A stretch of DNA of 64,000 nt from positions 5,622 through 69,621 of the forward strand of contig WRLE01000017.1 in the NCBI GenBank assembly GCA_009777775.1, given 5' to 3'. The notes below the pieces were generated by a model. The model ran no database searches. It was not told where the DNA came from and saw only the letters and a list, made by a program, of their open reading frames with translations. Within the stretch, counting starts at the first letter, position 1; every line of letters begins with the position of its first letter. This document shows, piece by piece, positions 39,929-60,091 of the stretch. The DNA comes from Oscillospiraceae bacterium. GTDB taxonomy: Bacteria; Bacillota; Clostridia; Oscillospirales; Oscillospiraceae. The position numbers and the translations under genes are program-made.

Positions 39929-39929
39929 T

Positions 39930-40719: not shown

Positions 40720-40745
40720 TTCAGAATAAAGGAATTAGCAGCAAC

Positions 40746-41558: not shown

Positions 41559-41607
41559 AGAATAGTCATTTATTATACAAGAAAAACAACTTGAGGATTT
41601 AAACAAC

Positions 41608-42588: not shown

Positions 42589-42605
42589 AAACGAGGATAA
42601 CAAAA

Positions 42606-43343: not shown

Positions 43344-43415
43344 ATAAGAAATACTAAAAATACCATTAATATTAATATAATATACATTATTATTTGTATT
43401 TAGGCTCGCAAACTC

Positions 43416-43444
43416 TTGCCTTTGTCAAAAAAAACAATTATAAT
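43416..43444 (+). promoter_or_regulatory. Possible promoter for the heptose genes (TTGCCT, 17-nt spacer containing A8, TATAAT)
   Basis: TTGCCT at 43416-43421, spacer 43422-43438 including AAAAAAAA (43427-43434), TATAAT at 43439-43444. Confidence 0.4.
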
Positions 43445-43484
43445 GTGATTTACCATTTATCATTTAATTTTTAAAGGTAACATT

Positions 43485-44129
43485 ATGAATAGTATTACAA
43501 TACTCGATGATCTAGTAAGTCGATATCCAATCCTTAATGATAATAAATCGGAAATACTTGTAGCAACAGAATGTATATACAATGCTTTCGCATCTGGTAA
43601 AAAAATATTGGTTGCTGGTAACGGTGGCAGCGCAGCTGACGCAGAACATATTGTTGGCGAACTGATGAAATCATTTGTTATCCGTAACAGGGTGGTAGAA
43701 CCTTCTATAGAAGCAATGCTGTTAGAAAAGTATGGAGATGATGGGTCTGAACTCGCAAAAAAGCTTGAAGGAGCATTACCAGCAATCCCATTAACTGGAT
43801 TTATTGGATTAGCAACTGCATTTGCCAATGATGTTGACCCACAGGTTTCATTTGCTCAGCAAGTATATGGCTTGGGTCATGAAGGAGACATTTTTTTAGC
43901 TATATCAACATCGGGTAATTCTAGAAACCTAATAAATGCATTAATGGTTGCCGATGCAAAAGGATTAGTAACTATCGGATTAACGGGTCGTAACGGAGGA
44001 ATGTTTAATAATTATTGTCATTACCTTATACATGCTCCGGAGGATGAAACCTATAAAATTCAGGAACTACACTTACCGATATATCACACCATTTGTTTAA
44101 TGCTAGAGTTTGAATTTTTTGGAGGATAA
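43485..44129 (+). CDS. gmhA: D-sedoheptulose-7-phosphate isomerase (SIS domain)
   Basis: ILVAGNGGSAADAEHIVGELMKSF, LAISTSGNSRNLINAL, and a length of about 200 aa. Confidence 0.85.
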   Translation: MNSITILDDLVSRYPILNDNKSEILVATECIYNAFASGKKILVAGNGGSAADAEHIVGELMKSFVIRNRVVEPSIEAMLLEKYGDDGSELAKKLEGALPAIPLTGFIGLATAFANDVDPQVSFAQQVYGLGHEGDIFLAISTSGNSRNLINALMVADAKGLVTIGLTGRNGGMFNNYCHYLIHAPEDETYKIQELHLPIYHTICLMLEFEFFGG

Positions 44130-44132
44130 TAA

Positions 44133-45563
44133 ATGACTGCACTCGATAATCTTAATAATGTCACAGTTCTTGTAGCTGGTGATTTTATGTTAGATAAATA
44201 CTATTATGGTGATATTACACGATTGTCACCAGAAGCACCTGTACCGGTTGTTAATGTGCAAGGTGAGCGGTGTGTACCTGGTGGAGCCGCAAATGTAGTA
44301 AACAACCTGTGTAGACTTGGTTGTAAAGTAAAATCATTCGGCATAATTGGCGATGATACAGAAGGAAAGATACTGAGCAATCTTCTTAATGATGCTCATA
44401 CTGATACGAATTTTCTTTTACATGATGAATCATATAAAACTATTATCAAAACAAGAATAGTTGGAAATAACAATCATCAAATTGCGCGACTTGATTTTAA
44501 TGAAAATTATCCTTTCCCAGCTACTTCTAAATTACTGGAGAGCCTTGATGCAGCTCTCGAAAATTGTAATATTGCTATTTTATCCGATTATGATAAAGGT
44601 TTTTGTAACGAAGAAACAACAAAAACACTCATTAGTGCATGTAAGAAGTATAATATACCGCTCATAATTGATCCTAAAGGAAAAAATTGGAACAAATACA
44701 ATGGTGCATCATGGATTGCTCCTAATTTCAGCGAATTTTCTGAAATGATTGGAAAATCAATAAAAAATACTGATGAAGATATAAGCGATAATATAGCCAT
44801 TATTAGTTCATCATTCACAATCGAGAATGTACTAGTAACTCGTTCAGAACAAGGAATGACACTTTATAACGGAGAAAAAATATACCATATTCGATCAATA
44901 GCTCGTGAGGTATTTGATGTATCTGGTGCTGGTGATACAGTAGTTGCAGTTTTAGCTGCGCTTTTAGGAGCTGGAGTAGACAAACAAAATGCTGTCGAGA
45001 TTGCTAACACTGCAGCTGGTATTGCTGTAGGAAAAAGCGGAACTGCTACCGTTAGTAAAGGTGAATTGGCTGCAGAGTTACAAACAAATCGTAATGATAA
45101 AGCTTTATCAAAAATAATGAGTTGGGATATGTTATTTAGCCGTGTCGAACAGTGGAAAAGCGAAAATAAAACGATAGCTGTAGCGAATGGATGCTTTGAT
45201 ATTTTACATAGAGGTCACACTTCACTTATTAATGCTGCATCACAATGTGCTGATATCTTAATAATGGCTATTAATACAGACGAAACTGTACGTAAGCTTA
45301 AAGGCGATAGTAGACCTATAAACAGTGAGAATGACCGAGCGTATGTTTTAGCAGCATTAGAAAGTGTAGATGCTGTTGTCATATTTGGCGAAGATACTCC
45401 CGAGGAGTTACTAAGCCACATTTTACCTGATGTGCTTGTAAAAGGTGCAGAGTACACTCTTGAGCAAGTTCCAGGACGGCAGTACTCTAAACGAGTTGAG
45501 TTAGTAGAATATATTGATGGATATTCAACAACAGCAATCGTTAATAAATCAAAAAATGGATAA
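44133..45563 (+). CDS. hldE: Bifunctional D-beta-D-heptose 7-phosphate kinase / D-beta-D-heptose 1-phosphate adenylyltransferase
   Basis: Kinase domain VLVAGDFMLDKYYYGDITRLSPEAPVPVV and DVSGAGDTVVA. Cytidylyltransferase-like domain VANGCFDILHRGHTSLI ... RPINSENDRAYVLAALESVDAVVIF. Confidence 0.9.
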   Translation: MTALDNLNNVTVLVAGDFMLDKYYYGDITRLSPEAPVPVVNVQGERCVPGGAANVVNNLCRLGCKVKSFGIIGDDTEGKILSNLLNDAHTDTNFLLHDESYKTIIKTRIVGNNNHQIARLDFNENYPFPATSKLLESLDAALENCNIAILSDYDKGFCNEETTKTLISACKKYNIPLIIDPKGKNWNKYNGASWIAPNFSEFSEMIGKSIKNTDEDISDNIAIISSSFTIENVLVTRSEQGMTLYNGEKIYHIRSIAREVFDVSGAGDTVVAVLAALLGAGVDKQNAVEIANTAAGIAVGKSGTATVSKGELAAELQTNRNDKALSKIMSWDMLFSRVEQWKSENKTIAVANGCFDILHRGHTSLINAASQCADILIMAINTDETVRKLKGDSRPINSENDRAYVLAALESVDAVVIFGEDTPEELLSHILPDVLVKGAEYTLEQVPGRQYSKRVELVEYIDGYSTTAIVNKSKNG

Positions 45564-45573
45564 TTGAAATTAT

Positions 45574-46509
45574 ATGGATTTTTCGAAAATTGTTACCAAA
45601 TCTGCCTTCGGACGACAAAATCAAGTATATCTTAAAGACTTGATTCCGCTAGATACGAATATTGACTATTCACCAACTGATGAGTTTATTAAACTCATTG
45701 ATTGTATTCGTTATGCACGCAATAATAGCAAACCTGTAATTATGTTTATGGGTGCTCATGTTATTAAATGCGGTTTATCATTGTTTGTAATCGATTTAAT
45801 AAAACAAGGGTGGATTACACACCTTGCAGGGAATGGTGCTGTGAGCATACATGATTTTGAACTCGCTTTCCTTGGAGCAACATCTGAGGATGTCCCAATG
45901 GCAATTGATGATGGCTCATTTGGGATGTGGGAAGAAACCGGCGGGTGGATGAACGATGCAATTAAGATTGGAAAAGACGCTGGATATGGTAAAGCTGTTG
46001 CACAATATATAGAAAGTAATATTGAACGATTTCCTCATTTTTCAATGTCAATACTTCATACTGCATATAAGCTTGATATTCCAGTTACGATTCATGTCGC
46101 AATAGGTACAGATATAATTCATCAACACCCAAGTGCTGACTTTGGGTCCATTGGTATTGCAAGCGGCAATGATTTTTATATATTTTGCGAAAGTGTCTCC
46201 GATCTTGACGGTGGTGTATTTATGAACTTTGGTTCTGCCGTGACAGGACCTGAGGTTTTTCTCAAAGCTTTGTCAATAGTACGCAACCTTGGCTATGCAA
46301 AAGACAATATTACAACAGCAAATTTTGATTTAAAACCCTTAGGCGATTACAAGATAAATATTGGATATGAAGACCCGGATTATTACTATAGACCAAGAAA
46401 AAATATAGTAAATCGCCCCACACAAAATAGTGGTAAAGGGTGGCACTTTGAACTTGATCATATAATATCAATACCCTTATTACATCAGCTTTTAGTAGAA
46501 AGAGGATGA
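45574..46509 (+). CDS. Deoxyhypusine-synthase-like (DS family fold) protein of unknown function
   Basis: The block order VIMFMGAHVIKCGLSLFVIDLIKQGWITHLAGNGAVSIHDFE, ILHTAYKLDIPVTIHVAIGTDIIHQH, GVFMNFGSAVTGPEVF parallels the conserved DHS blocks. This is a manual recollection, not a search result. Confidence 0.4.
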   Translation: MDFSKIVTKSAFGRQNQVYLKDLIPLDTNIDYSPTDEFIKLIDCIRYARNNSKPVIMFMGAHVIKCGLSLFVIDLIKQGWITHLAGNGAVSIHDFELAFLGATSEDVPMAIDDGSFGMWEETGGWMNDAIKIGKDAGYGKAVAQYIESNIERFPHFSMSILHTAYKLDIPVTIHVAIGTDIIHQHPSADFGSIGIASGNDFYIFCESVSDLDGGVFMNFGSAVTGPEVFLKALSIVRNLGYAKDNITTANFDLKPLGDYKINIGYEDPDYYYRPRKNIVNRPTQNSGKGWHFELDHIISIPLLHQLLVERG

Positions 46510-46515
46510 TTTTAA

Positions 46516-47673
46516 TTGCTTCATAAATTTATCGTTTGGCTAAAAGCACGATTACCACATGGATTTAAGCAGAAACTGAAAAAGCTACTTGGTATAGGTT
46601 CAACTGCGCAGGAAGTAAGTCTGTTTGCTAGACTCGATATAGATTCATCAAAAATTAATATTGCGATTTATGCTGGCGGAGGTTTAGGTGACTTCATTGT
46701 ATATAAAGCGATAATTGATAGTTTATTAAATAACTACAATTGTATGATTTACCTATTCACTTTGAGTTATGAAAATGCAGTAACCATTCTTGGAAATACA
46801 ATCGGATTAGAAGTTCATTACTCAGTTATGACTCAAAATAACGAGCAGTTTGACCTCGTATTAGATATGGATCATTTTATAAATGTACGAGATTTTAATA
46901 TGAGCAGACTAAAAAATAAATCACTAAAATTATACGATGATGTAAATAGAATTATTGCATATAATAGAGCTAACATCCCCTCTACTGATAATATACTAGC
47001 ACAAAGAAATGTGATAATTTTTCGTGCAAAATACTTAGGGTTAAATAGATGGACTCAATTATCATGTGGCGGCGTGTTCGATATGACCTCTATGCGCAGC
47101 GGAATCACAATAGATGAATGTAGCAGCATTATAGATTCATATAGTTTAAAAAATAACTCATATATAACAATAAGTCGTGGTGCCGATGTTGATATGGGTG
47201 GTATGCGCCAAACAAAGATATGGCCATTGCATCGGTATGTTGAATTTGTAAGTTTATTCAAAGCAAAATATACAACAATTAAAATTGTACAGCTTGCGCT
47301 TAAAGATGAGCCAGAAATACCTGGTACAGACATAGTTATCCGTGATGCAAGCTTTGAGGACGTGAAGGTAATTTTATCTAACTCCCAAGCTCATATATCA
47401 AATGAAGGTGGATTGGTTCACACAGCCACACAACTAGGAACACGATGTATAGTTCCTTTCGGACCGACCCCAGCTCATTATTACGGATATCCTGAAAATA
47501 TAAATATTGTGTCGCCTGTTTGTAAAGGGTGTATGGAAACAACCGATGACTGGTTTCAACGTTGCCCTAGAGGTTATGAATCAGCTGAATGTATGGAAGC
47601 AATAACTGGATATATGATATTAGAAAAATTAGCAAATCATATATTAATTCTAAATGCGGATTATAACTTATGA
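46516..47673 (+). CDS. GT9-like (heptosyltransferase-family) glycosyltransferase, paralog 1
   Basis: INIAIYAGGGLGDFIV (N-terminal GD motif), KIWPLHRYVEFVSLF, ISNEGGLVHTATQLGTRCIVPFGPT. TTG start, with no in-frame ATG nearby. Four-Cys C-terminal motif CKGC...WFQRC...C. Confidence 0.65.
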   Translation: MLHKFIVWLKARLPHGFKQKLKKLLGIGSTAQEVSLFARLDIDSSKINIAIYAGGGLGDFIVYKAIIDSLLNNYNCMIYLFTLSYENAVTILGNTIGLEVHYSVMTQNNEQFDLVLDMDHFINVRDFNMSRLKNKSLKLYDDVNRIIAYNRANIPSTDNILAQRNVIIFRAKYLGLNRWTQLSCGGVFDMTSMRSGITIDECSSIIDSYSLKNNSYITISRGADVDMGGMRQTKIWPLHRYVEFVSLFKAKYTTIKIVQLALKDEPEIPGTDIVIRDASFEDVKVILSNSQAHISNEGGLVHTATQLGTRCIVPFGPTPAHYYGYPENINIVSPVCKGCMETTDDWFQRCPRGYESAECMEAITGYMILEKLANHILILNADYNL

Positions 47674-47716
47674 AATATTTAACACAATTATATTATTTCT
47701 TCAATGGAGATACTAT

Positions 47717-49474
47717 ATGAGTATTCAGCAATCGAGTGTTATTAACAAAAATAAACTAAGTAACCAACATAAATCTCGCTCATTTGTAATAAAAAGCATT
47801 TTAAATCGATATAGCTCTATATTTAGCTACATTATTATATTATTATGCGTTTTATTGAAATTCCCAAATATCATAAGTGTGCCATATCTATGGGCTGAAG
47901 ATGCACGAATATTTATGCAGCGTGCAATCGATTATGGTTATAAATCGATTTTTATGGTATATGCTGGATACTACCATTTTTTTACACAATTTTTTACATA
48001 TTTATGGGTACAAGTTTGTTCATTTTTAGGTACATTCGTTCCACTTCCTTATTTTATGCAGTACACAGCTCATATCACAAATTCATTGTTTCTATTTTTT
48101 TTTGTAACATCACGCTTTGACTGGTTAATAGCAAATAAGTATAATCGATTATTATGTATTACATTAACTATTCTTTTACTCCCACAAAACACAAGTGAAG
48201 TTTGGGGGTCAATTACACAGTTTCAATGGTGGGCAACCTTTTTTGTGTTTTTATCTGGTCTTGATATTTTACATGATAAAGAAAAACTGCTTCCAGAGTA
48301 TAAGTATTTTTTAATACTACTAATAATATCTTTTAGTTCACCATGTGTTGTTTTCGTATTAGGAATAATTGTTTTAAAAATCCTACTATACATAATACAT
48401 AATAACAACTATATTAGTATACAAAGAATTTCAAAGCATGATTGTATAAAACTATTACTAATAATTATTGCATTTATTATCCAAATAAATAGTATATTCA
48501 GAACAAGAACACCTAGTTTAAATGCTGGTACCTTAAATAGAAAATTGGAACTTGCAATTGAAGGATATTTTCGTTTTTGTGGGTTACTATTTCAACCCTG
48601 GAGGGTTTACCCATTTGTTTTTCGTGGTATATTTAGCGGTTTAGTTCTATCAGTAGTCTTTGGTGTGATTATTTGGGAAATTAATATATTTTGTACGAAG
48701 GAATTTCGTTTGGTATCGTTGTATGGGCTAATATTTAGTCTATCATTTTGGCTCTTATGCTGTGTAAGTTTTAGAGATATAGACTGGTTTGATATGTATA
48801 TACGGGGTCAAGGTGGCGGTAGATACGGATTTAATATACATATAACACTCATTTTCGTGTCACTCATCCGAGTATTAGGTTTCTTATATAGAATATCAAA
48901 AACTCAAAAAATATGTGCCTTATGTTGTCTTATATATTTCTTTTTATTATCATTTGGTGGAGTAGGCCTTATGAGTAATGAGGAAGTTGGTAAAACAGAA
49001 TACTGGATAAAATATTCAAATTTATTCACATCAATAGGTAATGAACTTATGTTTACACCTACACCTCTCGGTTTTGTTAGAATACCAATATCATTTGAGA
49101 AAATACAACTAAATAAAGGCAACATTGATGTTGTGATTATTTCAAACGAAATTACCCAGCAATTTATTAACAATTCATTTATTTATAGGAACGCTCTCAT
49201 TGACCAAGATACATTAAGAATATCTGGTTGGTTTTATAGTGTTGATTACGAAATTTATTTAGAAAAAGTTTTAGTAAAAGTAGAAAACACATATTATCCA
49301 TGTGATACATTTCTATATGATGAAAATAATATGACAAAAAAAACAGGTTTCTACGTTGATATTCCATGTTCATCTTTTAAAAATAGTAGCGTTTTATTAA
49401 CTTTTTATGGACTAGATAATAATAACAGCGAGTATTTCGAAAAAACAGTTATTTTCCCATATGTTGAATCATGA
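47717..49474 (+). CDS. Polytopic membrane protein (at least 10 TM) with a C-terminal extracytoplasmic domain; candidate GT-C-type glycosyltransferase
   Basis: GGAG RBS before ATG 47717. An acidic first-loop motif YLWAEDARIF after TM1, many TM segments, and a soluble beta-rich C-terminus of about 170 aa. No recognisable family by eye. Confidence 0.45.
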   Translation: MSIQQSSVINKNKLSNQHKSRSFVIKSILNRYSSIFSYIIILLCVLLKFPNIISVPYLWAEDARIFMQRAIDYGYKSIFMVYAGYYHFFTQFFTYLWVQVCSFLGTFVPLPYFMQYTAHITNSLFLFFFVTSRFDWLIANKYNRLLCITLTILLLPQNTSEVWGSITQFQWWATFFVFLSGLDILHDKEKLLPEYKYFLILLIISFSSPCVVFVLGIIVLKILLYIIHNNNYISIQRISKHDCIKLLLIIIAFIIQINSIFRTRTPSLNAGTLNRKLELAIEGYFRFCGLLFQPWRVYPFVFRGIFSGLVLSVVFGVIIWEINIFCTKEFRLVSLYGLIFSLSFWLLCCVSFRDIDWFDMYIRGQGGGRYGFNIHITLIFVSLIRVLGFLYRISKTQKICALCCLIYFFLLSFGGVGLMSNEEVGKTEYWIKYSNLFTSIGNELMFTPTPLGFVRIPISFEKIQLNKGNIDVVIISNEITQQFINNSFIYRNALIDQDTLRISGWFYSVDYEIYLEKVLVKVENTYYPCDTFLYDENNMTKKTGFYVDIPCSSFKNSSVLLTFYGLDNNNSEYFEKTVIFPYVES

Positions 49475-49489
49475 TAATGTAGGTATTTT

Positions 49490-50359
49490 ATGCGGTTAGT
49501 TTCTCAACTAGTAAAATTGATACGCCCTAAGCAATGGATTAAGAACAGCTATGTTTTTGCTGCACTAGTGTTTTCGGGCAGTTTATTCAATCTCTCCATG
49601 TTTATGATGTGTTGTTTTGGGTTTACAATATTTTGTATTTCATCAAGTTGTGTATACATCGTTAATGATGCAATAGATGCTAGCAGCGACCGTGCACATC
49701 CACAGAAAATGAATCGTCCTTTAGCAAGTGGTGCTGTTAGTATTACTCAAGCAATGCTGCTATTATTGACATTGTTAATATTATTATTACTCAGCTTTGT
49801 ATATGTTAACATACATTTCAGAGTAGTTATATCTATCTACTTACTAATAAATTTACTATATTCTTTTTGGCTAAAAAATGAACCTATAATCGACATCATA
49901 TGCATTTCATTAGGCTTTGTTTTGCGTGCAATTTCTGGAGCTGTTATTATTAACGTAACAATATCACCATGGTTACTAATTTGTACATTTTTATTATCAT
50001 TATATTTAGCGATTAACAAAAGAACTTGCGAAATAAAAAATATTGCGATAGAAGCAGCATATAAACGGAAGGTATTAGAATTTTATACAATCGACATGCT
50101 CAGTAGTATGTCATCGGTTGTTTTATCTGCGACTATTACAGCATATTGTATTTATATAATAACTACAGAATTAATGGCTAATATGCTAATTACAATACCT
50201 TTTGTTGTCTATGGGTTATTTCGATATCAACATATAGCTAATTCAACTGAATATGCTGAGTCACCAGAGACAGCTATCCTAAAAGATAAACCTTTACTAA
50301 TATGTGTACTAATCTGGGGATTAGCATGTGTTTCATTCATGTATATTAATTTTACATAG
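49490..50359 (+). CDS. UbiA-superfamily polyprenyl-phosphate phosphoribosyltransferase (DPPR-synthase-like)
   Basis: LIRPKQWIKNSYVFAALVF, the Asp-rich motif YIVNDAIDASSDRAHPQKMNRPLASG, and eight to nine TM segments. The pattern resembles the Rv3806c subfamily. Confidence 0.75.
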   Translation: MRLVSQLVKLIRPKQWIKNSYVFAALVFSGSLFNLSMFMMCCFGFTIFCISSSCVYIVNDAIDASSDRAHPQKMNRPLASGAVSITQAMLLLLTLLILLLLSFVYVNIHFRVVISIYLLINLLYSFWLKNEPIIDIICISLGFVLRAISGAVIINVTISPWLLICTFLLSLYLAINKRTCEIKNIAIEAAYKRKVLEFYTIDMLSSMSSVVLSATITAYCIYIITTELMANMLITIPFVVYGLFRYQHIANSTEYAESPETAILKDKPLLICVLIWGLACVSFMYINFT

Positions 50360-50406
50360 TTTGAATAGATAAAAGCAGAGCATTGGTATTAGGAGAAGCG
50401 ATATAT

Positions 50407-51453
50407 ATGGCTAAGTATTTTATAACTGGCGGTGCGGGTTTTTTAGGAATTAACCTAACTCGGCATCTTCTACAATTAGGTCACACTATTGTCTCTTATG
50501 ATTTTGATGAATCATATAATTATCCCGAAAAAGAAGATATTAGAGTAAAAGTAATAACTGGTGATATAAGAAACATTGGTTTACTCAAAGAATCTATGTT
50601 GACTTGCGATATTGTTGTACATTGTGCTGCTGCATTACCTTTATATAGTAAAAATGATATATTTACTACAGATATCAATGGCACAAAAAATGTCTTGCAA
50701 TCTGCTCTTGAAATTGGGATTGAGAGAGTTATTCAAATATCATCAACTGCTGTATATGGGATACCCGATCACCATCCAATATATGAAACTGATCAATTAA
50801 CAGGTGTTGGACCTTATGGTATAGCTAAAATTGAAGCTGAAAGAGTTTGTGAAGAGTATCGCACAAATGGATTGTGTGTACCAATAATTCGTCCAAAAAG
50901 TTTTATCGGGCCAGAACGATTGGGGGTGTTCGCTCTATTTTACGATTGGGCGAAAGATGGTAGAGGATTTCCAATGATTGGTAAAGGTAATAACCGATAT
51001 CAATTCCTCGATGTTTATGATTTATGTGAGGCAATTTATCTATGTGCTACTCTTGAAAAAAGCATCGTTAACGATACGTTTAACATAGGAGCGGAAGAAT
51101 TTACTACGATGCGCGAAGACTATCAAGCGGTGCTTGATTATGCTGGATACGGGAAAAAAATTAGGACTTTTCCTGCTGCTCCAATGATATGGACTTTGCG
51201 TTTTTTAGAGCTGCTCCATTTGTCTCCATTATACAAATGGGTTTATGAAACTGCTGCAACAGATTCGTTTGTATCAATAGACAAAGCCAAAGAAAAACTA
51301 GGGTTTGAGCCTATATACTCAAATAAAGAAGCTCTACTACGAAATTATGACTGGTATATTAATAATTTGGAGACAATTAGTAACGTATCAGGAGTTACTC
51401 ATCGTGTTCCATGGAAGCAAGGAATCCTTGGGTTGGTAAAGAAATTCTTTTAA
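50407..51453 (+). CDS. NAD-dependent epimerase/dehydratase (extended SDR)
   Basis: FITGGAGFLGINL (GxxGxxG), catalytic YGIAK (YxxxK). The start was set at ATG 50407. Confidence 0.85.
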   Translation: MAKYFITGGAGFLGINLTRHLLQLGHTIVSYDFDESYNYPEKEDIRVKVITGDIRNIGLLKESMLTCDIVVHCAAALPLYSKNDIFTTDINGTKNVLQSALEIGIERVIQISSTAVYGIPDHHPIYETDQLTGVGPYGIAKIEAERVCEEYRTNGLCVPIIRPKSFIGPERLGVFALFYDWAKDGRGFPMIGKGNNRYQFLDVYDLCEAIYLCATLEKSIVNDTFNIGAEEFTTMREDYQAVLDYAGYGKKIRTFPAAPMIWTLRFLELLHLSPLYKWVYETAATDSFVSIDKAKEKLGFEPIYSNKEALLRNYDWYINNLETISNVSGVTHRVPWKQGILGLVKKFF

Positions 51454-51526
51454 CAGACAATATTATATTATGCATATAATATAGAGTCATACCTTAGTAG
51501 CTAACTACACTTCAGAGATGTGATTT

Positions 51527-52087
51527 ATGAATGTCTACGATTTTGATGGAACAATATATGATGGAGACAGCACAAAAGACTTCTTTATCTTTTGCGTGAG
51601 AAGGTACCCCAAAATTTGTATTATACTTCCGAAATTTTTTTACTATTTTATTCAGTACATAATCGGTAATTGCGATAAAGAAAGATTAAAAGAATCATTT
51701 TTTGGATTTTTGCGATTGTTACCAAATACGCAAGACGAAGTGATGCTATTTTGGGAAAAACACGAAATAAAGATTCAAAAATGGTATCTTTCGCAGAAAC
51801 GGAGTAACGATGTTATTATTTCTGCTTCACCTGGATTTTTACTACAACCAATCTGCGAAAAATTAGGTATTTCTTGCATTGCATCAGTAGTAAACCCTGA
51901 TAATGGGTTATATACTGGTTTAAACTGTTATGGTAATGAAAAAGTGAGACGTTTTCGAGAAATATATATTGATGCATCAATTAATTGTTTTTATACGGAT
52001 TCATTATCTGATATACCAATGGTTGAGATAGCACAATCTGCTTATATTGTGAAAAATGGTAATGTAACAAAATATGACATATTTTGA
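51527..52087 (+). CDS. HAD-superfamily hydrolase/phosphatase
   Basis: Motif I VYDFDGTIYDGDS (DxDxT), motif II ISASP, motif IV-like YTDSLSD. Confidence 0.7.
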   Translation: MNVYDFDGTIYDGDSTKDFFIFCVRRYPKICIILPKFFYYFIQYIIGNCDKERLKESFFGFLRLLPNTQDEVMLFWEKHEIKIQKWYLSQKRSNDVIISASPGFLLQPICEKLGISCIASVVNPDNGLYTGLNCYGNEKVRRFREIYIDASINCFYTDSLSDIPMVEIAQSAYIVKNGNVTKYDIF

Positions 52088-52233
52088 TAATAATTCAATA
52101 TAAAAACCATATAACGATTAGTTAATAAAAATTCGAAATACCAGATTGTATTAAATCATTGATATGCTAACAAAATGGTATTGTTTTAATATATAAATAT
52201 GCATTATAAAATTGTTTCATCAAAGGGAGTTTT

Positions 52234-53250
52234 ATGAATATATTTTCAAAAATTATAAATAGACTAACTAATAATAAACGCTTCTCAATTCTGGAAAATG
52301 ACCGCACAGAACTATTTAGCAGAATCGATGAAATGATGATTCGAATTGATAATATTGAAAACAAAGCTAATACATCATTAAATTCAAATATTACAAAATA
52401 CAATGATTCATACTTGGAATTTGAGTATTTAAATGAACTACTTAGAGTAGCAAAAATGTTGTATGAAACAAGAGAAGACCCCAATACTATATATGCATCA
52501 CCTCCGGAGTATACAAAAGATACTGGGCTGTTGCTTGACGAAAATGTATTTCGTAATTTTAGTCATGCACATGGTTTTTCATTAATATCTTTTTCACAAC
52601 GTAGTCAAGATAAAATTGTTGAAGCATTACTCTTCGAGGCTGGCATTACAAAACCTAGCTACCTCGATATTGGTGCTAATACTCCAGTAGAAATGTCAAA
52701 TACAGCTTTGTTTTACCGAAAGGGGTGTAGTGGTGTTGTTGTAGATGCTAATGAGTCTCTTCGGCAAAGATGGACTGAGTTGCGACCTAACGATATATTT
52801 GTTAATGCTGCTGTTTCAACAATTAGTGGTGAAAAGATACCGTTTTACATGCTGGACATGTACTCACCGCGTAACTCTGTTGATTTTGAAACTATAAATG
52901 CTTTTATAGAAGAATCAAAGAAAACTGAAAATCCTTGGGAAATTATGAAAACAATTGAAGTAACAACCATTACAATAAATGAAATCGTCGATATATATTG
53001 TAATGGGATATTTCCTGACTATTTATCTATAGACATAGAAGGAATGGATTTACATGTTCTTCAAAATGCTGATTTCACCTTATCGGCTCCAAAAGTAATA
53101 AGTATTGAAGACCAATCAACCGAATTGTATCATACACTAAAAGAAAAAGGTTTTTTTCCAATAGTATCTGTTGGAGATACAATCGCTGTTCACAGTAGTT
53201 TAGCACCGATAGTGCGTCCATGGATAGATATCGAAGAATCTAAACTATGA
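52234..53250 (+). CDS. FkbM-family methyltransferase with a 45-aa N-terminal helical module
   Basis: YLDIGANTPVEMSNTALFYRKGCSGVVVDANE (SAM motif I) and LSIDIEGMDLHVL. The N-terminus is homologous to that of the 53313 gene. Confidence 0.75.
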   Translation: MNIFSKIINRLTNNKRFSILENDRTELFSRIDEMMIRIDNIENKANTSLNSNITKYNDSYLEFEYLNELLRVAKMLYETREDPNTIYASPPEYTKDTGLLLDENVFRNFSHAHGFSLISFSQRSQDKIVEALLFEAGITKPSYLDIGANTPVEMSNTALFYRKGCSGVVVDANESLRQRWTELRPNDIFVNAAVSTISGEKIPFYMLDMYSPRNSVDFETINAFIEESKKTENPWEIMKTIEVTTITINEIVDIYCNGIFPDYLSIDIEGMDLHVLQNADFTLSAPKVISIEDQSTELYHTLKEKGFFPIVSVGDTIAVHSSLAPIVRPWIDIEESKL

Positions 53251-53312
53251 TGCTTACATAGATGATGTAATGGACAAGTTCTATTTAGAGCATCTCATCA
53301 AAGGAGTATTAT

Positions 53313-54590
53313 ATGAATATACTTAAAAAAATTAAAAATAGATTGATAGATAACCAACGCTTTACAATACTTGAAAAAGATCGATCAGAGTTATTCAATC
53401 GAATTGATGAAATCTGGACTCGTCTAGAAGATATAGATAAAAAAACAATTAATAATTCATCATCATTTAATATAGGGAATTCTAGCGCAACGAATGAACC
53501 TAATAACCCTCTCAATCAAAATAAATTGAACATTGCGTTTTTAATACGTGGTGGTTTAGGTGATATTGTAATGCTGGCAAACTATATCTATATGTTTCGT
53601 AAAAAATTCTCTGATGACATAATAAATATTGATATTTTTTCTGATGATCACAGATTCGAATCAACACGAACCGTTTTTAATGGTGTTCAATCTAGCTTTA
53701 TTAATAATCTTTATGCTAGAAACAAAGATGCAGCTAAATTGAATTATTATGATTTATTTATCGATATAGCACGATATCCTGATATAAAGAAGCGCGATTT
53801 ATCAAGAATATCAGAAATGGTTCCTGAGTTAATTGAATATATATTTTTATGTGAACGTTTTCGTGCAGAATACTCACGTTTTTTTACTCACCAAGGACCT
53901 ACAGATGGTCAATCCGCAATGGTCAGCATCATTAAAGGAGCTAAACGATACCAACAAGCTGATATTTATGGATTCCTTGGTATGTCCGAAAAATATGAAC
54001 ATAGTATTCATATTGCAGAAAATGAGAATGCTTACTTACAACAGCTTGGTTTATATAATCGAAACTTCATTACAATTAATCGAGGAAACGATAGTGCGTA
54101 TGCTAAAAACAGTACCAAAATCTGGCCTCTCTCATATTACGGTATTTTAATACGTTTATTAAAAAAGAGATTTCCCAACATTATCTTGGTACAAATTGGT
54201 GCAGACAGCACAGTATTTCCAATTTTACCAGGTGCTGATATGCATCTTGTTTCTCAGACTAGTCTCGAACAAGTAAAGGTATTGCTAAAACATGCAACTT
54301 TACATATTGATGGCGAAGGCGGTTTAGTACATATGAGACATGCTTTGAATGGCGGTAAATCAATCGTACTATTTGGTCCAACATCTGCTGAGTTTTTTGG
54401 TTATTCTGAGAATGAAAATATTGTTGGAAAAGGGTGCGATGTCTGGTGCGAATGGGCATTTAGTAATTGGCAAGATCGTTGTTTACGAGGAAAATCCTCT
54501 GCTTTTTCGCATTGTATGGCATCAATTATTCCTGAAAAAGTTTTAATGCATATAGAAAATGTGTTAACAAATAATCAGGAGGAGCAATAA
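53313..54590 (+). CDS. GT9-like glycosyltransferase, paralog 2, with the same N-terminal helical module
   Basis: LNIAFLIRGGLGDIVM, KIWPLSYYGILIRLL, HIDGEGGLVHMRHALNGGKSIVLFGPT, and the Cys motif CDVWC...WQDRC...C. Confidence 0.65.
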   Translation: MNILKKIKNRLIDNQRFTILEKDRSELFNRIDEIWTRLEDIDKKTINNSSSFNIGNSSATNEPNNPLNQNKLNIAFLIRGGLGDIVMLANYIYMFRKKFSDDIINIDIFSDDHRFESTRTVFNGVQSSFINNLYARNKDAAKLNYYDLFIDIARYPDIKKRDLSRISEMVPELIEYIFLCERFRAEYSRFFTHQGPTDGQSAMVSIIKGAKRYQQADIYGFLGMSEKYEHSIHIAENENAYLQQLGLYNRNFITINRGNDSAYAKNSTKIWPLSYYGILIRLLKKRFPNIILVQIGADSTVFPILPGADMHLVSQTSLEQVKVLLKHATLHIDGEGGLVHMRHALNGGKSIVLFGPTSAEFFGYSENENIVGKGCDVWCEWAFSNWQDRCLRGKSSAFSHCMASIIPEKVLMHIENVLTNNQEEQ

Positions 54591-54593
54591 TAT

Positions 54594-56156
54594 ATGAGTA
54601 ATAGTAAAATAACTGTAGCATTTAGATTAAATGGTGGTATAGGTACTTATTTAGTCGAATTAAACTTCATCAAGTTCTTTTATGATGCTTTTCCTGATGT
54701 AATTATTTCGGTATTTGGTTCTACTTCAGAAGCAGTTAATGCTGGACTTATGAACTCCCAATACTTTATCGCAAAATATCATGTTCGTAGTATGTTTCGC
54801 GAGTATGGCTATGATTTAATAATTGACTTAAACTGGTTTCCAAAAGTTATATATGTAAATATGCCAAAAATTCAAACTCAAGTACCCGGACTTCCTGAAA
54901 TAATAAAACAATGGGTAGCTTTTGAGACTGATCCTGCAACAAACAATTTTATTCGAAATGACTCGATTTTTGATTATAACATATATACATATGCTATAGC
55001 AAACAAAAAAAACAGGCTAAATGTAATGGATATTAATGAAGCTTTAGGTATAGAAAGTCAATTTCGCTATACCTTGTATCCACTCAGAGACGAACTTGAT
55101 GTACTTAATAAATTTGGCTTAAGTGAGCTTAATTACATAACTTTACAACAAGGAGTTAATGCTGACTCAAATTCAAAACAATCTCCTAAACAATGGCCAA
55201 TTCATAATTTCAATGTACTTTGTCGTTTACTTAAACATGAATATCCCGATATTATTTTAGTGCAACTCGGAGAGTTAGCTAATAACGAACCAATCGAAGG
55301 TGTTGATATGAATTATTTAGGAGACACAGACTTTGAGGAACTTAAAATACTTTTGAAAAACGCATTTTTACATATAGACGGTGAGTGCGGTATGATGCAT
55401 ATGCGTAAAGCTATGTTAGCTGGTCCTTCGGTAGTATTGTATGGTCAAACTCCTATAGAAATTTATAGCTATGATGATAATTTGAATATCTATACTAATG
55501 TTTGCATGGGATGTAGTAAGTTATTTAGCGGATGGAAAAGACGTTGTCTTTTGAAAGAGCCAATTTGTATGACTTCAATAACACCCGAAATGGTACTTAA
55601 TGTTATTAGAAATCATATTGAAAATGAAACTAAATACAAAACAATCAAACTCACAAAACTTCAGGAGCTTTTATCCGATTCAACTATTAAGCTTGATCCC
55701 GAATGGGTTGAATTGTGGTTAAAGGAACGAATTATTTACGATTATTGGGTAGAAAAAATAAAGCTAAAGGATTTATTAGCTACAAACTTGACAGAGAATG
55801 GTTATGTACCTATTCCGCTTGAAGAAACAGCAGCATTCAAATACATAAGTGGAAATCATCAACAATACATTGAATACATAAAATTGAACGATATTTATAA
55901 TCCTGGCCACGAGCGTACATTGGAAAAAATTGATAATTTAATTGAGCAACTGAACACACACGGATATAACCAAAATCAATTTATAGTAATTGATGGAAAC
56001 AATATTATATTTGATGGCTCGCATCGCGCAAGTTGGTTGATGTATATGTATGGCGGTGATTATGAAGTAGAAACGATTAAGATATATCTTGATGAGAATA
56101 CTGGCTCTGTTCTATACTCACAATTAATTGAAGAAATTTCAGAATTGAACGAGTAA
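54594..56156 (+). CDS. GT9-like glycosyltransferase, paralog 3, fused to a C-terminal ParB/Srx-like domain
   Basis: ITVAFRLNGGIGTYLV, KQWPIHNFNVLCRLL, HIDGECGMMHMRKAMLAGPSVVLYGQT, and the Cys motif CMGC...WKRRC...C. The C-terminal 140 aa ends in IEQLNTHGYNQNQFIVIDGNNIIFDGSHRASWL (the DGxHR motif of the ParB/sulfiredoxin fold). Confidence 0.6.
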   Translation: MSNSKITVAFRLNGGIGTYLVELNFIKFFYDAFPDVIISVFGSTSEAVNAGLMNSQYFIAKYHVRSMFREYGYDLIIDLNWFPKVIYVNMPKIQTQVPGLPEIIKQWVAFETDPATNNFIRNDSIFDYNIYTYAIANKKNRLNVMDINEALGIESQFRYTLYPLRDELDVLNKFGLSELNYITLQQGVNADSNSKQSPKQWPIHNFNVLCRLLKHEYPDIILVQLGELANNEPIEGVDMNYLGDTDFEELKILLKNAFLHIDGECGMMHMRKAMLAGPSVVLYGQTPIEIYSYDDNLNIYTNVCMGCSKLFSGWKRRCLLKEPICMTSITPEMVLNVIRNHIENETKYKTIKLTKLQELLSDSTIKLDPEWVELWLKERIIYDYWVEKIKLKDLLATNLTENGYVPIPLEETAAFKYISGNHQQYIEYIKLNDIYNPGHERTLEKIDNLIEQLNTHGYNQNQFIVIDGNNIIFDGSHRASWLMYMYGGDYEVETIKIYLDENTGSVLYSQLIEEISELNE

Positions 56157-56261
56157 TAGGTTTTATAAACATTAATATAGTAAGCTTTATCATCAGGCAT
56201 TAACAAAAATCTCATTTGTTAATCGTTTTTGAAATATATTTATAAACCAAGGAGGTGTATG

Positions 56262-57302
56262 ATGGAACAATTATGGAAAAATATACATAACCTATATTCA
56301 AAAAATAAAAGTATTGTTATTCCAACAAACAATGAGGAGTCAATGATTGCTATTGAGTCATTGACAGACTACCATAAGTCACGCGGGCTTGACTATATTG
56401 CTTCTCGTCTTGATTTTTTATTGATAGCTCAAGCAATTACTCTTTACTATTCGAAACATGATCGTTATCAAACTCTTGATTCTGAAGCAAAGTACATAGT
56501 TGATTATCTTGATACTGATGAGTTTTACCATCATATAATGCGGTATAGAGTTTATCCATTAGATTCACAGATGATCTCGTTTACAAAACAATTTTATAAT
56601 AATATATATCCTCATACTGGATACCCTCAAATTGACAATATCGAAGAATCATTAAGTATTGATAATGGGTTCATTTACGCGAATCCTAATAATCATAAAG
56701 TTTATCTCAAAGGCAATTTCGATGAAGCTCGTGTTTATTGGAGAGCACTAATGACTGAACAAATACCAAACCATCCTCATTGTTATCTAAATGAATCAAA
56801 CTTCAACATAAATAATGGAGAAATAATTGCAGACATAGGCGCAGCAGAAGGTTACTTTAGCATAGCTCATATAAATAAAATAAAACATGCATACATATTT
56901 GAATGCGATGATTCCTGGTTTAATTTACTAAAAAAGACATATGCTCCATTTAAAGATAAAGTAACTCTAATAAAAGGTTATGTTGGAGATGGAAACGGAA
57001 ACATCTCTCTTGATGAATATTTTAAAGATAAAGATAAACCTACATTTTACAAACTTGATGTTGAAGGAGCTGAAGGTTCTGTGTTGCGATGCATGAGTAC
57101 GCTTTTGCATGATCCCTCATTACCAATGCGATTAGCAATATGCACATACCATCGCCAAGAAGATGCTCCATACTTTGAATGGTTACTAGGTGACACTTTT
57201 CATAAACATTACTCAAATTCATATTTTTGGCATATGCCTGACCCTATGCCTCCATTTCTGCGCCGAGGTGTAATGCGTGCAACAAAAATGCTAAATAAAT
57301 AA
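56262..57302 (+). CDS. FkbM-family methyltransferase
   Basis: GGAGG RBS before ATG 56262. IADIGAAEGYFS (SAM motif I) and YKLDVEGAEGSVL. Confidence 0.75.
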   Translation: MEQLWKNIHNLYSKNKSIVIPTNNEESMIAIESLTDYHKSRGLDYIASRLDFLLIAQAITLYYSKHDRYQTLDSEAKYIVDYLDTDEFYHHIMRYRVYPLDSQMISFTKQFYNNIYPHTGYPQIDNIEESLSIDNGFIYANPNNHKVYLKGNFDEARVYWRALMTEQIPNHPHCYLNESNFNINNGEIIADIGAAEGYFSIAHINKIKHAYIFECDDSWFNLLKKTYAPFKDKVTLIKGYVGDGNGNISLDEYFKDKDKPTFYKLDVEGAEGSVLRCMSTLLHDPSLPMRLAICTYHRQEDAPYFEWLLGDTFHKHYSNSYFWHMPDPMPPFLRRGVMRATKMLNK

Positions 57303-57322
57303 AACTAAAAGGTAAATAACTG

Positions 57323-57796
57323 ATGAATAATCGAGCGATTTTTTTAGATAGAGATGATACCATAATCGTAGATCGTGGATATTTAAGCAATCCTAATGAT
57401 ATTGAATTTTTACCCGGTGTTGTTTCTGCTCTTAAAACATTTCAAGACACAGGTTATTTGTTGATTATGGTGAGTAACCAATCAGGTATTGGAAGAGGAT
57501 ATTTTACTATAGATGAATATAACGCTGTTCATGCTCGTTTCATGGAGTTACTTAAAGATAATGATATTAGTTTCACCGCATATTATTATTGTCCTCATGC
57601 TCCGGATGATAACTGCGAATGTAGAAAACCAAAAGCATTTTGGGCATACAAAGCCGCTGAAGAATATAACATTGATTTGAACGAGAGTTACATGATTGGT
57701 GATAAAGATAGCGATATAGAATTTGGCAATAATTTTGGTGCAAAACAATCTTTTAAAAGCGTTACTGAGTGTGTTCAATATTTTGAAAGAGCATAA
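57323..57796 (+). CDS. gmhB: D-glycero-D-manno-heptose 1,7-bisphosphate phosphatase (HAD-IIIA)
   Basis: AIFLDRDDTII (DxDxT), VSNQSGIGRGYF, the Zn-binding loop YYCPHAPDDNCECRKPK, and IGDKDSDIE. Confidence 0.85.
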   Translation: MNNRAIFLDRDDTIIVDRGYLSNPNDIEFLPGVVSALKTFQDTGYLLIMVSNQSGIGRGYFTIDEYNAVHARFMELLKDNDISFTAYYYCPHAPDDNCECRKPKAFWAYKAAEEYNIDLNESYMIGDKDSDIEFGNNFGAKQSFKSVTECVQYFERA

Positions 57797-57864
57797 TAAG
57801 GATAATAATATTTCGAAATATTATTTGATCAAATATTTAATAAACCGGTTAAAAGGAGACTTAC

Positions 57865-58491
57865 ATGAGTAATGTTAATAATTTACTAGATACAATTTCA
57901 TCTAGCTTAAAATTAATATCTGTTGCTATATCACCAATCGAATTTTTATCTACGATAAAAGACAGCATTGATTATATATCAAATATATCAAATGCTCTAT
58001 TGATTGACAAAATTAAACGCTTTCTCGATCATCAAGATGATGATTTTGATGAAAAATTGAAATTATCTACTCAATTCCAAACTGACGCATTAAACTACAA
58101 GAATAAGGCAAAATTGTTAGTAAACACGATTAATTCTTTTCATAACTATAAAAATATCGATATTTATGCAAATTTAACAAGAGCATGGTTAAATAATAAT
58201 ATTGATGAAAATCTATTTCATAGGCTTTCTTTTATCCTGTCAAATCTTTTTTATGAGGATATTAATTATTTACACAATAACATTGACAAAGAAATAGAAA
58301 TAACTGCTGAAAACTATATTATTGAAGTTAACAATCTATACCAAAATAATTTACTTCGTATAAAAAACAAGTTCACATGGGGTGCTTCAGGAGGTAATGA
58401 AATATTTGTATCAACAGATTTAGGAAGAGACTTGGTAAGTTTTGGGTTAGAGTATGATAAAATGAATATTAACGAAAATTCAATAATTTAA
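57865..58491 (+). CDS. Hypothetical protein (208 aa), very AT-rich gene
   Basis: AGGAG RBS. No recognisable motif; predicted helical, N/I/K-rich. Confidence 0.45.
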   Translation: MSNVNNLLDTISSSLKLISVAISPIEFLSTIKDSIDYISNISNALLIDKIKRFLDHQDDDFDEKLKLSTQFQTDALNYKNKAKLLVNTINSFHNYKNIDIYANLTRAWLNNNIDENLFHRLSFILSNLFYEDINYLHNNIDKEIEITAENYIIEVNNLYQNNLLRIKNKFTWGASGGNEIFVSTDLGRDLVSFGLEYDKMNINENSII

Positions 58492-58671
58492 TTCTATAAT
58501 AGTATATTAAGTTAAAATAATTAAAAGAGCAATCTTGATAGCTTAACCAAAATTAGCTCAACAAGTAAAGTTGATTATAGTGGCGAAATTGAATTACCGC
58601 ACTATGAAAACATAACACAAAATGATTTATTTAAGTTTGTTTATGAGTCCGTAACAATATGTATAGCTCTA

Positions 58672-58983
58672 GTGATAGAAATTGAATATTTATCATCTCT
58701 AAATGAATACCAAACTAAATATTTCAACGGAACACCTTTTACTATTGAATACTCAGAAAATAACAGAAATGCTACTGTACTACTAACAATTGATAGAATC
58801 CTTGACAAAGATGCTGTAGAATCATTTGATACTAAGTTCAGAAGCTATGATAACCCCAACTATGTAGTGGGACTTATTGATATATTAAAGAAGTCGATAT
58901 TGTTGACAGGAGCGAATCAAAATATGAATAATAGTAAACAATTATCTGAATCAGAAATTATTAAAAAAAGAAACAACAGATAA
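58672..58983 (+). CDS. Hypothetical protein (103 aa), possibly 5'-truncated
   Basis: GTG start. The in-frame, protein-like reading continues upstream to 58525 with no start codon, which suggests a decayed longer gene. Confidence 0.35.
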   Translation: MIEIEYLSSLNEYQTKYFNGTPFTIEYSENNRNATVLLTIDRILDKDAVESFDTKFRSYDNPNYVVGLIDILKKSILLTGANQNMNNSKQLSESEIIKKRNNR

Positions 58984-59036
58984 CAAAAAAGCTTAATGCT
59001 GCAAATAATATATTATTATGGAGCAAAGGTGTTCTG

Positions 59037-59515
59037 TTGCAAGGAAATCGAATAATGAATAACCATGATAACGAAATATTTATATGTGAATCATATTTCT
59101 TTATGTGTGCACTAAAAATGCTAATCGATAACCTTGAAATATTAAGAAAAGAGAGCGTTTTTAAGGAATTCTTAAGTATTATTGACAAAGAAATAGGGGT
59201 TCAACACATAAAAGATATGCGAAATATTAATACGCATATTAATGATTATTACGACACAACAAACGAAAAAAAAGAAATGAACGATTCATGCACGATCTAT
59301 GTCAGAATCAAAATATATAAATATCTGCAAATTCGAATGTTAGATTTGAAAATACTACAATATTTGGTAATAAAATGAATGACGATTTATATCTTGGTGG
59401 ACGAATTGAATTAAAGAAAACAATAAATCTCATTGAAAACTTGATGCCACAAATTAATACTGCAGTATTCAAATATAACGAAAATAACAAATTGGATATA
59501 GAGAATAATGTATAA
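59037..59515 (+). pseudogene. Frame-disrupted HEPN-like gene
   Basis: HIKDMRNINTHIND carries the Rx4H / RN...H HEPN motif. The reading frame breaks: 59037-59378 is followed by a protein-like continuation in another frame (ISANSNVRFENTTIFGNKMNDDLYLGGRIELKK..., to 59515). An A8 run lies at 59263-59270. Confidence 0.35.
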
Positions 59516-59905
59516 TCTTGTTTTAAACTTTAATTATGGTCGGCGTGAAAACCCTCAACCTAATGAAAATACTAAACATAATGTCCATTATATGATATAT
59601 AATAACCATGTATCTGCTCAAAAATAAAAAATTTTGTGAACTGTGCGAGTGTACATGAAATAAAACCACTATCAAATGACCGTTAGAGATCTTACTCCAT
59701 TATAAGCTAGAATCTCAATGCTGGAAACTGATGAGTCATGATATCGCTGATTTAATGTTGGTCTCGCGCAGATTGTATTAAGAGAGCTTGGGTAACTGTT
59801 GGAATGCTTTAATACAAATTAGCGAAGGAACTTCACATAAAGTATTATTGAAGAGTATCCTTGCTTAATTCCTTCTGATATTACTTAAGCTCTTCAATAT
59901 GTTTC

Positions 59906-60091
59906 ATGGGTTATATACAAAGAAAGCAAGTCATCTCCAACGGTACGACTACACTCTTCGTGTCCCATTCTATGGAGCAAACCAGACAATTATGCAACAA
60001 AATCCTATGGTTAGAACGAGGCAAACAAATGGCCTTCGGCGAAACGCAGGAGGTCTGCGATATGTATGAGCGATTTATAGCGGAGAGGTAG
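59906..60091 (+). pseudogene. 3' remnant of a second Wzt/TagH ABC ATPase gene
   Basis: ISNGTTTLFVSHSMEQTRQLCNKILWLERGKQMAFGETQEVCDMY aligns residue by residue with the C-terminus of the intact Wzt (ISNGATVLIVSHSISTIKEMCTRAILLEKGEVKCLGNVDEVCEVY). No Walker A or signature region lies upstream. Confidence 0.75.

Follow-up and report, generated by a model that had tools for sequence, protein, structure and literature searches.

The window analysed here is a stretch of 64,000 nucleotides from contig WRLE01000017.1 of an Oscillospiraceae bacterium (assembly GCA_009777775.1). The open reading frame (ORF) at positions 54594-56156 of the window encodes a protein in which a family 9 glycosyltransferase (GT9) domain is followed by a C-terminal domain that resembles the fold common to the ParB N-terminal domain and sulfiredoxin (Srx). 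The original prediction had placed a ParB/Srx-like domain at this end of the product and had quoted a string of residues in its favour. Both the ORF and the string are real. The string IEQLNTHGYNQNQFIVIDGNNIIFDGSHRASWLMYMYG corresponds to amino acids (aa) 450-487, at positions 55941-56054. The sequence AGGAGG is located 8 nt upstream of the ATG. The features of this ORF are listed below.

54594-56156, + strand: whole ORF, GT9 fused to a ParB/Srx-like domain (520 aa, ATG start)
54594-55631, + strand: predicted GT9 (GT-B) transferase domain, aa 1-346, with a PF01075 match
55632-55652, + strand: variable linker between the GT9 and ParB-like domains, with indels in the alignment of 11 fusions
55653-56099, + strand: domain very probably of ParB/Srx fold, aa 354-502 (envelope of the family model, AlphaFold2 (AF2), Foldseek, PHROG, hhalign)
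55836-55877, + strand: aromatic motif (F/Y)-x-Y-(I/L)-x-G-x4-Y-x2-Y, aa 415-428 (conservation in 211 sequences)
55920-55976, + strand: Box I-like helix and G-Y-(D/N) loop, aa 443-461 (AF2 helix H97-110, hhalign)
56013-56027, + strand: D-G-S-H-R, aa 474-478, counterpart of the Box II phosphate-binding P motif (GxxR) (conservation, hhalign)

The Pfam scan of the fusion protein identified PF01075 at aa 194-309 (E 8.6e-7, 29 bits against a gathering cut-off of 22), and aa 1-346 are accordingly annotated as a divergent GT9 transferase. Four cysteines (Cys304, Cys307, Cys318, and Cys325) are located near the end of this domain. A reading of this four-cysteine GT9 as a protein heptosyltransferase of the BAHT/TibC type was considered and is not supported, as no TibC was obtained in the profile search of the PDB. 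The linker that follows varies in length, with indels at columns about 355-372 of the alignment of the 11 closest fusions. The C-terminal 174 residues are matched by no Pfam or NCBIfam model. A conserved domain nevertheless exists in this region as had been predicted, but it begins about 30 residues before the predicted start at 55746, namely at 55653. The C-terminal 18 residues DENTGSVLYSQLIEEISELNE (56100-56153) form an unconserved tail that is absent from all 10 closest homologues, and AF2 predicts a helix there at lower confidence.

The C-terminal 174 residues were used as the phmmer query against 1.84 billion representative proteins. This search identified 345 representatives at E<=1e-3, of which 82 reach E<=1e-10. 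The first word-indexed homologue search limited to the C-terminal region had returned the query alone. None of the 43 stand-alone homologues obtained by word-indexed search has a precomputed Pfam domain, and PF01075 is the sole precomputed Pfam domain of the fusion homologues obtained in the same way. The family consists of stand-alone proteins (~165-185 aa or ~244 aa), GT9 fusions (~505-520 aa), and longer multidomain proteins. Orthologues with the same two-domain architecture were identified in more than 20 independent assemblies, at 33-54% identity. Judged from these searches, aa 354-502 represent a rare domain family that is absent from Pfam and NCBIfam.

The conservation of this domain was determined from 211 aligned members. 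G475 and R478 are conserved in 100% of them, H477 in 99%, D474 in 97%, G487 in 95%, and Y428 in 91%. The string that carries DGSHR is thus not a chance resemblance, since 345 representatives match the C-terminal 174 residues and the motif is near-invariant. Position 476 is Ser in the fusion and Gln in 67% of the family. The segments Y-x-Y-L-x-G...Y-x-x-Y and R-F-x-x-L-I-x-S-L...G-Y-D are moderately conserved: Y417 (74%), L418 (84%), G420 (84%), and Y425 (77%) accompany Y428 in the aromatic segment, and R/K445 (77%), L449 (85%), and G457 (68%) are found in the Box I-like helix and its loop. Family-specific elements comprise an N-terminal helix (LLxDxR(F/I)xID) and a beta-hairpin with two helices that carry conserved tyrosines.

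The AF2 model of the domain, built from a 66-sequence alignment, has a mean predicted local distance difference test (pLDDT) score of 91.1 and a predicted template modelling (pTM) score of 0.82. The model of the full-length protein from the single sequence is uninformative (pLDDT 32). The domain model exhibits the core strand, helix, beta-hairpin, helix, and strand of the ParB/Srx fold, with the elements E35-44, H97-110, E118-120, E125-128, H130-140, and E145-153 in domain numbering. Helices H67-72 and H76-89 carry the aromatic motif and are inserted after the first strand, ahead of the Box I-like helix. When the model was compared with the PDB using Foldseek, ranks 1-17 were all ParB/Srx structures, and other folds appeared from rank 18 at a probability of <=0.06. 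The best match is the pNOB8-like ParB-N structure 5k5d (E 2.4e-3, probability 1.00). Further matches are Noc, ParB-CDP (6sdk), Myxococcus xanthus ParB, human and plant sulfiredoxin, and PadC, with a template modelling (TM) score on target of 0.40-0.52 for the Srx structures 3cyi, 1xw4, and 6ky4. Five matches at E<=1e-3 were obtained from the viral models of BFVD (best 2e-4, probability 1.00), four of which are named ParB or ParB/Sulfiredoxin while one is unnamed.

At the sequence level, family members match the ParB-like PHROGs phrog_620 (8.6e-6, three members) and phrog_2159 (1.7e-5), as well as phrog_12305, phrog_723, one ParB-type nuclease PHROG, and one methyltransferase PHROG. The sequence link to ParB is transitive, because it is the relatives and not the fusion protein that match these PHROGs. 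The hhalign comparison with 30 chromosomal ParB N-domains gave a score of 19.35 (P 0.012), against 11.5 for the reversed alignment and 8.2-14.3 for 30 column-shuffled ones. In its register, the helix before the hairpin is placed on the ParB Box I helix 'L.ELA.SI..HG', 'IVV' on 'IVV', and DGxHR on GERRxRA. Scans of the domain, the whole protein, and 46 stand-alone relatives with Pfam and NCBIfam retrieved no ParB model, while single relatives match GmrSD_N (0.011), DndB (0.049), and ddrB-ParB (0.17) weakly in Pfam.

The motifs of the fold are retained in part. A Box I-like helix (aa 443-456) and a G-Y-(D/N) loop occupy the position expected of Box I, and the base-contacting residues of ParB are not recognisably conserved there. 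Box II is kept as G475-S-H-R478, placed where the helix that follows the hairpin begins. The GxxR of Box II (P motif) binds phosphate, and nucleoside triphosphate (NTP) binding requires its arginine (PMC12704722). Box III (ENxxR) is absent: most members end ~25 residues after Box II, soon after the strand next to its helix, and the hhalign alignment stops before the ParB ENLQR. Many orphan ParB proteins likewise lack Box III (PMC12704722). No helix-turn-helix (HTH), C-terminal dimerisation domain, or ParA-binding peptide was found, and no HTH or ParB_C family was matched in Pfam. The catalytic Cys of sulfiredoxin is absent from the DGxHR of the domain. We conclude that aa 354-502 are very probably a true homologue of the ParB/Srx fold. 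The predicted fold is thus upheld by AF2, Foldseek, BFVD, PHROG, and hhalign, whereas the Pfam ParB search that had been suggested as its check gave no match.

The partners of the domain are enzymes of glycan assembly. The 82 multidomain representatives comprise 29 with RgpF, 23 with GT9, three with GT2, and one each with GT8 and WbsX, together with two fusions to S-adenosylmethionine (SAM) methyltransferases. No DNA-related partner is present among the 25 families listed for these representatives. A regex search for SAM motifs, made to locate the methyltransferase fusions, had no match. The domain also exists as a separate gene. In one related locus (L004), GT9a (the partner GT9 paralogue), GT9, a 185-aa domain protein, and an FkbM-like gene follow each other in the gene order of the window. 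Split and fused copies are both present in Selenomonas ruminantium (L013), and another locus (L019) is also split.

In the S. ruminantium locus (7563-17776 of SVBX01000002.1), the split copy consists of GT9a, GT9, a 175-aa ParB-like gene, FkbM, and an FkbM-like gene. The fused copy consists of GT9a followed by a 639-aa GT9-ParB-like protein with extra C-terminal sequence.

In Nautilia profundicola and one metagenome contig, the gene of the 244-aa stand-alone form immediately precedes a GT9 gene. It belongs to a four-gene module in Wzx/Wzy-type loci that consists of a 71-aa gene, a ~215-aa gene, the 244-aa ParB-like gene, and GT9, at the following positions.

L076 7136-9877: four-gene module of Nautilia profundicola (CP001279.1)
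L080 2469-5231: four-gene module of the metagenome contig

The ~215-aa gene has an NTP_transf_5 match in the metagenome contig only, and no Pfam domain is on record for it in Nautilia. The 244-aa protein combines an N-terminal domain of ~90 aa (motif EDNIGExxHLHxD) with the ParB-like domain, and a loose Pfam scan of this N-terminal extension gave no family. Another stand-alone form adjoins a methyltransferase, a flippase, and GT1.

The tree of 203 domain sequences was constructed using FastTree. Clade 1 contains 49 leaves, including 35 GT9 fusions, three that score with both GT9 and RgpF, and 10 stand-alone proteins. Clade 2 contains 48 leaves with 35 RgpF fusions, and clade 3 contains 48 leaves of the 244-aa form. 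The tree requires 57 changes of partner label compared to 112-122 with shuffled labels, a statistic that is descriptive only since kin share labels. The domain appears from this topology to have diversified together with its partner enzymes. Its partners and gene neighbours likewise indicate that it is dedicated to glycan enzymes, either fused to them or as a separate gene beside GT9.

The genes that surround the fusion in the window are listed below.

40746: GT2
41608-43343, + strand: Wzm/Wzt ABC exporter (PF01061, PF00005)
43485-45563, + strand: GmhA (SIS; 43485) and HldE (PfkB kinase and cytidylyltransferase-like; 44133) of ADP-heptose synthesis
46516-47673: third GT9 paralogue, 385 aa, without Pfam match, matching the GT9 ORFs of related loci
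49490: UbiA-type prenyltransferase
50383: NAD epimerase
51527: HAD
52234: FkbM methyltransferase
53313-54590, + strand: GT9a, the partner GT9 paralogue, 425 aa (PF01075, E 2.4e-10)
56229-57302, + strand: FkbM-like methyltransferase, 357 aa (TIGR01444, E 9e-8; PF05050, weak)
57323-57796, + strand: GmhB-like HAD phosphatase, conserved in related loci

Loose Pfam scans of the neighbours at 45574, 47654, and 57865 and of the N-terminus of the 56229 product gave no match. Identity between the ORF at 46516 and the GT9 ORFs of related loci reaches 62% in L004. The locus thus holds three GT9 paralogues (this ORF, GT9a, and the fusion), as the original prediction had claimed along with a four-Cys motif common to all three. 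GT9a is always located directly upstream of the fusion in related loci (L004-L017, L025, and others), GmhA and HldE are co-located with the fusion in most of them, and the Wzm/Wzt exporter is also present in L006, L009, L011, and L012. Orthologues of the FkbM-like methyltransferase come after the ParB-like gene in L004 and L013. The core of GmhA, HldE, GmhB, GT9a, and the GT9-ParB-like protein, often with Wzm/Wzt, recurs in metagenome-assembled genomes and isolates. Its carriers are Oscillospiraceae, Lachnospiraceae, Pseudobutyrivibrio, Selenomonadaceae, and gut Alphaproteobacteria, and the heptose-locus context is thus shared among anaerobes of the gut and rumen. Given what the families in this locus are known to do, the product is most likely a heptose-containing polymer that is made on the cytoplasmic face and exported by the ABC transporter.

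The G+C content is 28-36% in the glycan locus (40000-60000) and 43-49% in a region upstream that holds giant ORFs (16000-34000). A search of 40 relatives, including 18 from the same genus, did not recover the ParB-like domain, and it was identified in only 3 of the 401 genomes sampled from the phylum, where two of the three matches are weak. Because of the low G+C content and the failure to find the domain in the 40 relatives, the locus looks horizontally acquired, as a typical exchanged surface-glycan locus. The canonical ParB of the genome is encoded elsewhere (C9:62805-63083).

The domain was compared with characterised proteins of the same fold. Like Srx (PDB 1xw3, 1xw4, 3cyi, and 6ky4), it exhibits a minimal fold of ~100-150 aa without HTH or Box III and a G-x-H-R at a helix N-terminus (G-C-H-R in Srx, G-S-H-R here), which binds the ATP phosphates in Srx, itself a phosphotransfer enzyme. 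Unlike Srx, it has Ser in place of the Cys, adds an N-terminal helix, a beta-hairpin, and a tyrosine-rich insertion, shares only 9-12% sequence identity, and is found in bacterial glycan synthesis instead of eukaryotic redox repair. ParB, Noc, PadC, and the pNOB8 ParB-N (5k5d, 6sdk, 7nfu, and 6ryk) are the best structural matches, with the Box I-like helix and Box II aligned in register and GxxR invariant. They differ in that the domain acquires no ParA-binding peptide, HTH, dimerisation domain, or Box III and is undetected by PF02195. The free-serine kinases SerK and SbnI provide a precedent for phosphorylation of a hydroxyl on a small substrate by this fold with ADP or ATP, but they are outside the top 50 PDB matches and differ in substrate and domain composition. 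SerK has been reported as an enzyme on the ParB/Srx fold (PMC5120207), and Srx and SbnI are cited as such in PMC12704722.

The transferase domain was compared with WaaC, WaaF, and WaaQ of GT9. The PF01075 match above threshold and the ADP-heptose genes in the locus are similar to these enzymes. However, the NCBIfam equivalogs score far below their cut-offs (TIGR02195, 25.1 against 134.6; TIGR02193, 21.6 against 185.3), several fusion homologues are from Gram-positive Oscillospiraceae and Lachnospiraceae, and the fusion belongs to a polysaccharide locus with Wzm/Wzt and has a ParB-like domain in addition. The comparison with WbdD of Escherichia coli O9a and with WaaP/WaaY, which are kinases for sugars of ABC-exported O-polysaccharides or for core heptose, is a functional analogy only. 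These kinases have protein-kinase-like folds and are not homologous to the ParB/Srx domain. In WbdD a kinase is combined with a methyltransferase, and the fusion of the window has methyltransferases on either side. The original prediction had also named WaaP/WaaY as functional analogues; no homology to them was found, and no kinase family was matched in Pfam or NCBIfam.

Taken with the fold, the context argues with moderate confidence that aa 354-502 belong to a divergent ParB/Srx-fold family specialised in glycan assembly, as a nucleotide- or phosphate-binding accessory module and perhaps a glycan kinase. The domain would bind an NTP, a nucleoside diphosphate (NDP), or another phosphate ligand through DGxHR. 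Together with the transferase, it would act in cis on the growing heptose-containing polymer before export by the Wzm/Wzt pump. The preferred mechanism is phosphotransfer to a sugar hydroxyl, in which the domain would be a glycan kinase akin to Srx, SerK, and SbnI, the invariant Asp may coordinate a metal or act as a base, and the sugar may be held by the aromatic insertion. This mechanism is preferred because the minimal architecture without Box III and HTH matches the enzymes of the fold (Srx, SerK, and SbnI), because Asp and His beside the Arg are almost invariant, because the aromatic insertion could hold a sugar, and because methyltransferases are frequent partners or neighbours. By analogy with those enzymes, phosphorylation of the glycan by the domain is put forward tentatively, and a regulatory or binding-only role is nearly as likely. 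It is possible, though doubtful, that the family founds a class of carbohydrate kinases on the ParB/Srx fold, in which the polysaccharide would be phosphorylated with ATP or CTP or, as in SerK, with the NDP released by the transferase. Nucleotidylation of the sugar had been predicted next to phosphorylation, and we know of no precedent for it on this fold.

Several observations weigh against a glycan kinase of ParB/Srx fold. PF02195 and the other ParB-clan models of Pfam do not match the fusion protein, and phmmer and profile searches against PDB sequences gave nothing meaningful. The Foldseek E-values against the PDB are weak, none being <=1e-3, and the TM-scores normalised to the query are 0.3-0.4. 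To our knowledge, no phosphorylated heptan has been described from these organisms. The Wzt of this locus is short and has no extra C-terminal module of the type that recognises a terminal cap, which speaks against a terminating kinase of the WbdD type. The methyltransferase neighbour is also not conserved in the Oscillospiraceae loci. The reading of the domain as a WbdD-like terminator was downgraded on account of these last two findings. In addition, no NTP binding was seen in vitro for 17 of the 28 ParB-fold proteins purified in the 2025 survey (PMC12704722).

Other explanations account for parts of the same evidence. The domain could be an NTP-gated switch in which binding of CTP or ATP alters the oligomeric state or membrane association, as in ParB, Noc, and PadC, and which would turn the attached polymerising transferase on and off or couple it to GT9a and the exporter. 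The majority of the characterised members of the fold are nucleotide switches (PMC12704722), ParB, Noc, and PadC are the best PDB matches, the domain co-diversifies with its partner, and a flexible linker joins both domains. However, the domain has no Box III, from which the Mg2+ and hydrolysis residues of ParB come, and the minimal architecture without HTH or dimerisation domain is nearer to Srx and the enzymes than to clamps. We consider such a switch rather unlikely. A module without catalysis is less probable again, though it would explain why the phosphate-binding motif alone is invariant. GT9 uses ADP-heptose, RgpF uses dTDP-rhamnose, and GT2 and GT8 use UDP-sugars; as the nucleotide sugars of the partners differ, their common element would be a phosphate or a lipid instead of one base. 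The GxxR pocket would then hold a phosphate ligand common to the partners, such as the pyrophosphate of an undecaprenyl-pyrophosphate acceptor or the NDP product, and would thereby either anchor the transferase at its lipid-linked substrate or lessen inhibition by the product. However, Asp and His, both near-invariant and adjacent to the Arg, look like a catalytic or metal site, and a tether accounts less well for the fusions to methyltransferases and for the stand-alone forms. We also know of no precedent for the use of this fold as a phosphate tether.

Two further explanations deny the homology or the role in glycan assembly. The DGxHR could have arisen by convergence on an unrelated small alpha/beta domain, which would agree with the missing Pfam ParB match, the PDB Foldseek E-values of 2e-3 or weaker, the TM-score of ~0.35 on the query, and an hhalign P of only 0.012. 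It is very improbable, as the PDB folds, BFVD folds, PHROG profiles, and hhalign agree on the superfamily and the motif occupies the equivalent structural place. Least credible of all is an accidental fusion in which the domain is the remnant of a ParB-like nuclease or DNA-binding protein of a mobile element and has no role in glycan assembly. Many orphan ParB proteins are carried on mobile elements (PMC12704722), and the locus looks horizontally acquired with its low G+C content and a domain that was not found in 40 relatives. The recurrent architecture contradicts this: hundreds of representatives from several phyla combine the domain with glycan enzymes, with strictly conserved motifs, partner-specific clades, and no HTH.

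In full-text searches of the literature, no publication was retrieved that describes a ParB-like domain linked to a heptosyltransferase, RgpF, or an O-antigen glycosyltransferase, which agrees with the earlier remark that no GT9-ParB fusion has been characterised. Only in recent years has the ParB-CTPase fold come to be seen as a versatile NTP module with uses outside chromosome segregation (PMC12704722). A survey of its fusions, published in PNAS in 2025, was seeded with PF02195 and reported HTH, HNH, methyltransferase, DUF, and CBS partners and no glycosyltransferase; the available portion of its supplementary text contains no 'Glyco', PF01075, or PF05045 (PMC12704722). The survey could not see the DGxHR glycan family because of that seed. 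The family extends a known fold by a new and very divergent branch, and its functional setting is new as well. With a few hundred representatives, an invariant phosphate-binding motif, and five glycosyltransferase families as partners, it ties the ParB fold to surface-glycan biosynthesis in gut and rumen anaerobes. Its recurrence on unrelated glycosyltransferase families points to an unstudied nucleotide-dependent step in glycan assembly. Decoration and chain-length control of ABC-exported polysaccharides are understood in few model O-antigens, and phosphorylation, gating, or substrate tethering by this domain is a candidate step in ABC-transporter-dependent synthesis. If it is a kinase, a nucleotide-dependent layer of polysaccharide assembly would have been overlooked by Pfam-seeded surveys. 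For annotators, a new domain model would serve proteins that are now labelled merely 'GT9' or 'hypothetical'.

Other observations were made in the window. FkbM (52234-52360) and GT9a (53313-53440) share a near-identical N-terminal helix of ~42 residues (BLASTP E 1e-13) with the consensus MNI(F/L)xKIxNRLxxNxRFxILExDRxELFxRIDE, which the fusion does not have. This helix may be a docking or coiled-coil segment that joins both enzymes. A 606-aa protein without family, the UbiA-type prenyltransferase, the NAD-dependent epimerase/reductase, and the HAD phosphatase are arranged in a row at 47654-52087. We take this row to resemble the donor pathway of a polyprenyl-phosphate pentose (decaprenylphosphoryl arabinose (DPA)-like), which would suggest a second, lipid-linked sugar donor. 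An AAA ATPase (PF01637-like, 480 aa) and a Uma2 endonuclease are located between two GT2 genes at 38468-40719, and an AAA ATPase with 39% identity is found inside the heptose locus of Pseudobutyrivibrio sp. 49 (L025 4936-6375). The three giant ORFs upstream of the glycan locus, at 16228-34002, encode proteins of 2076 aa (- strand), 1212 aa (+ strand), and 2467 aa (+ strand), which could be surface proteins.

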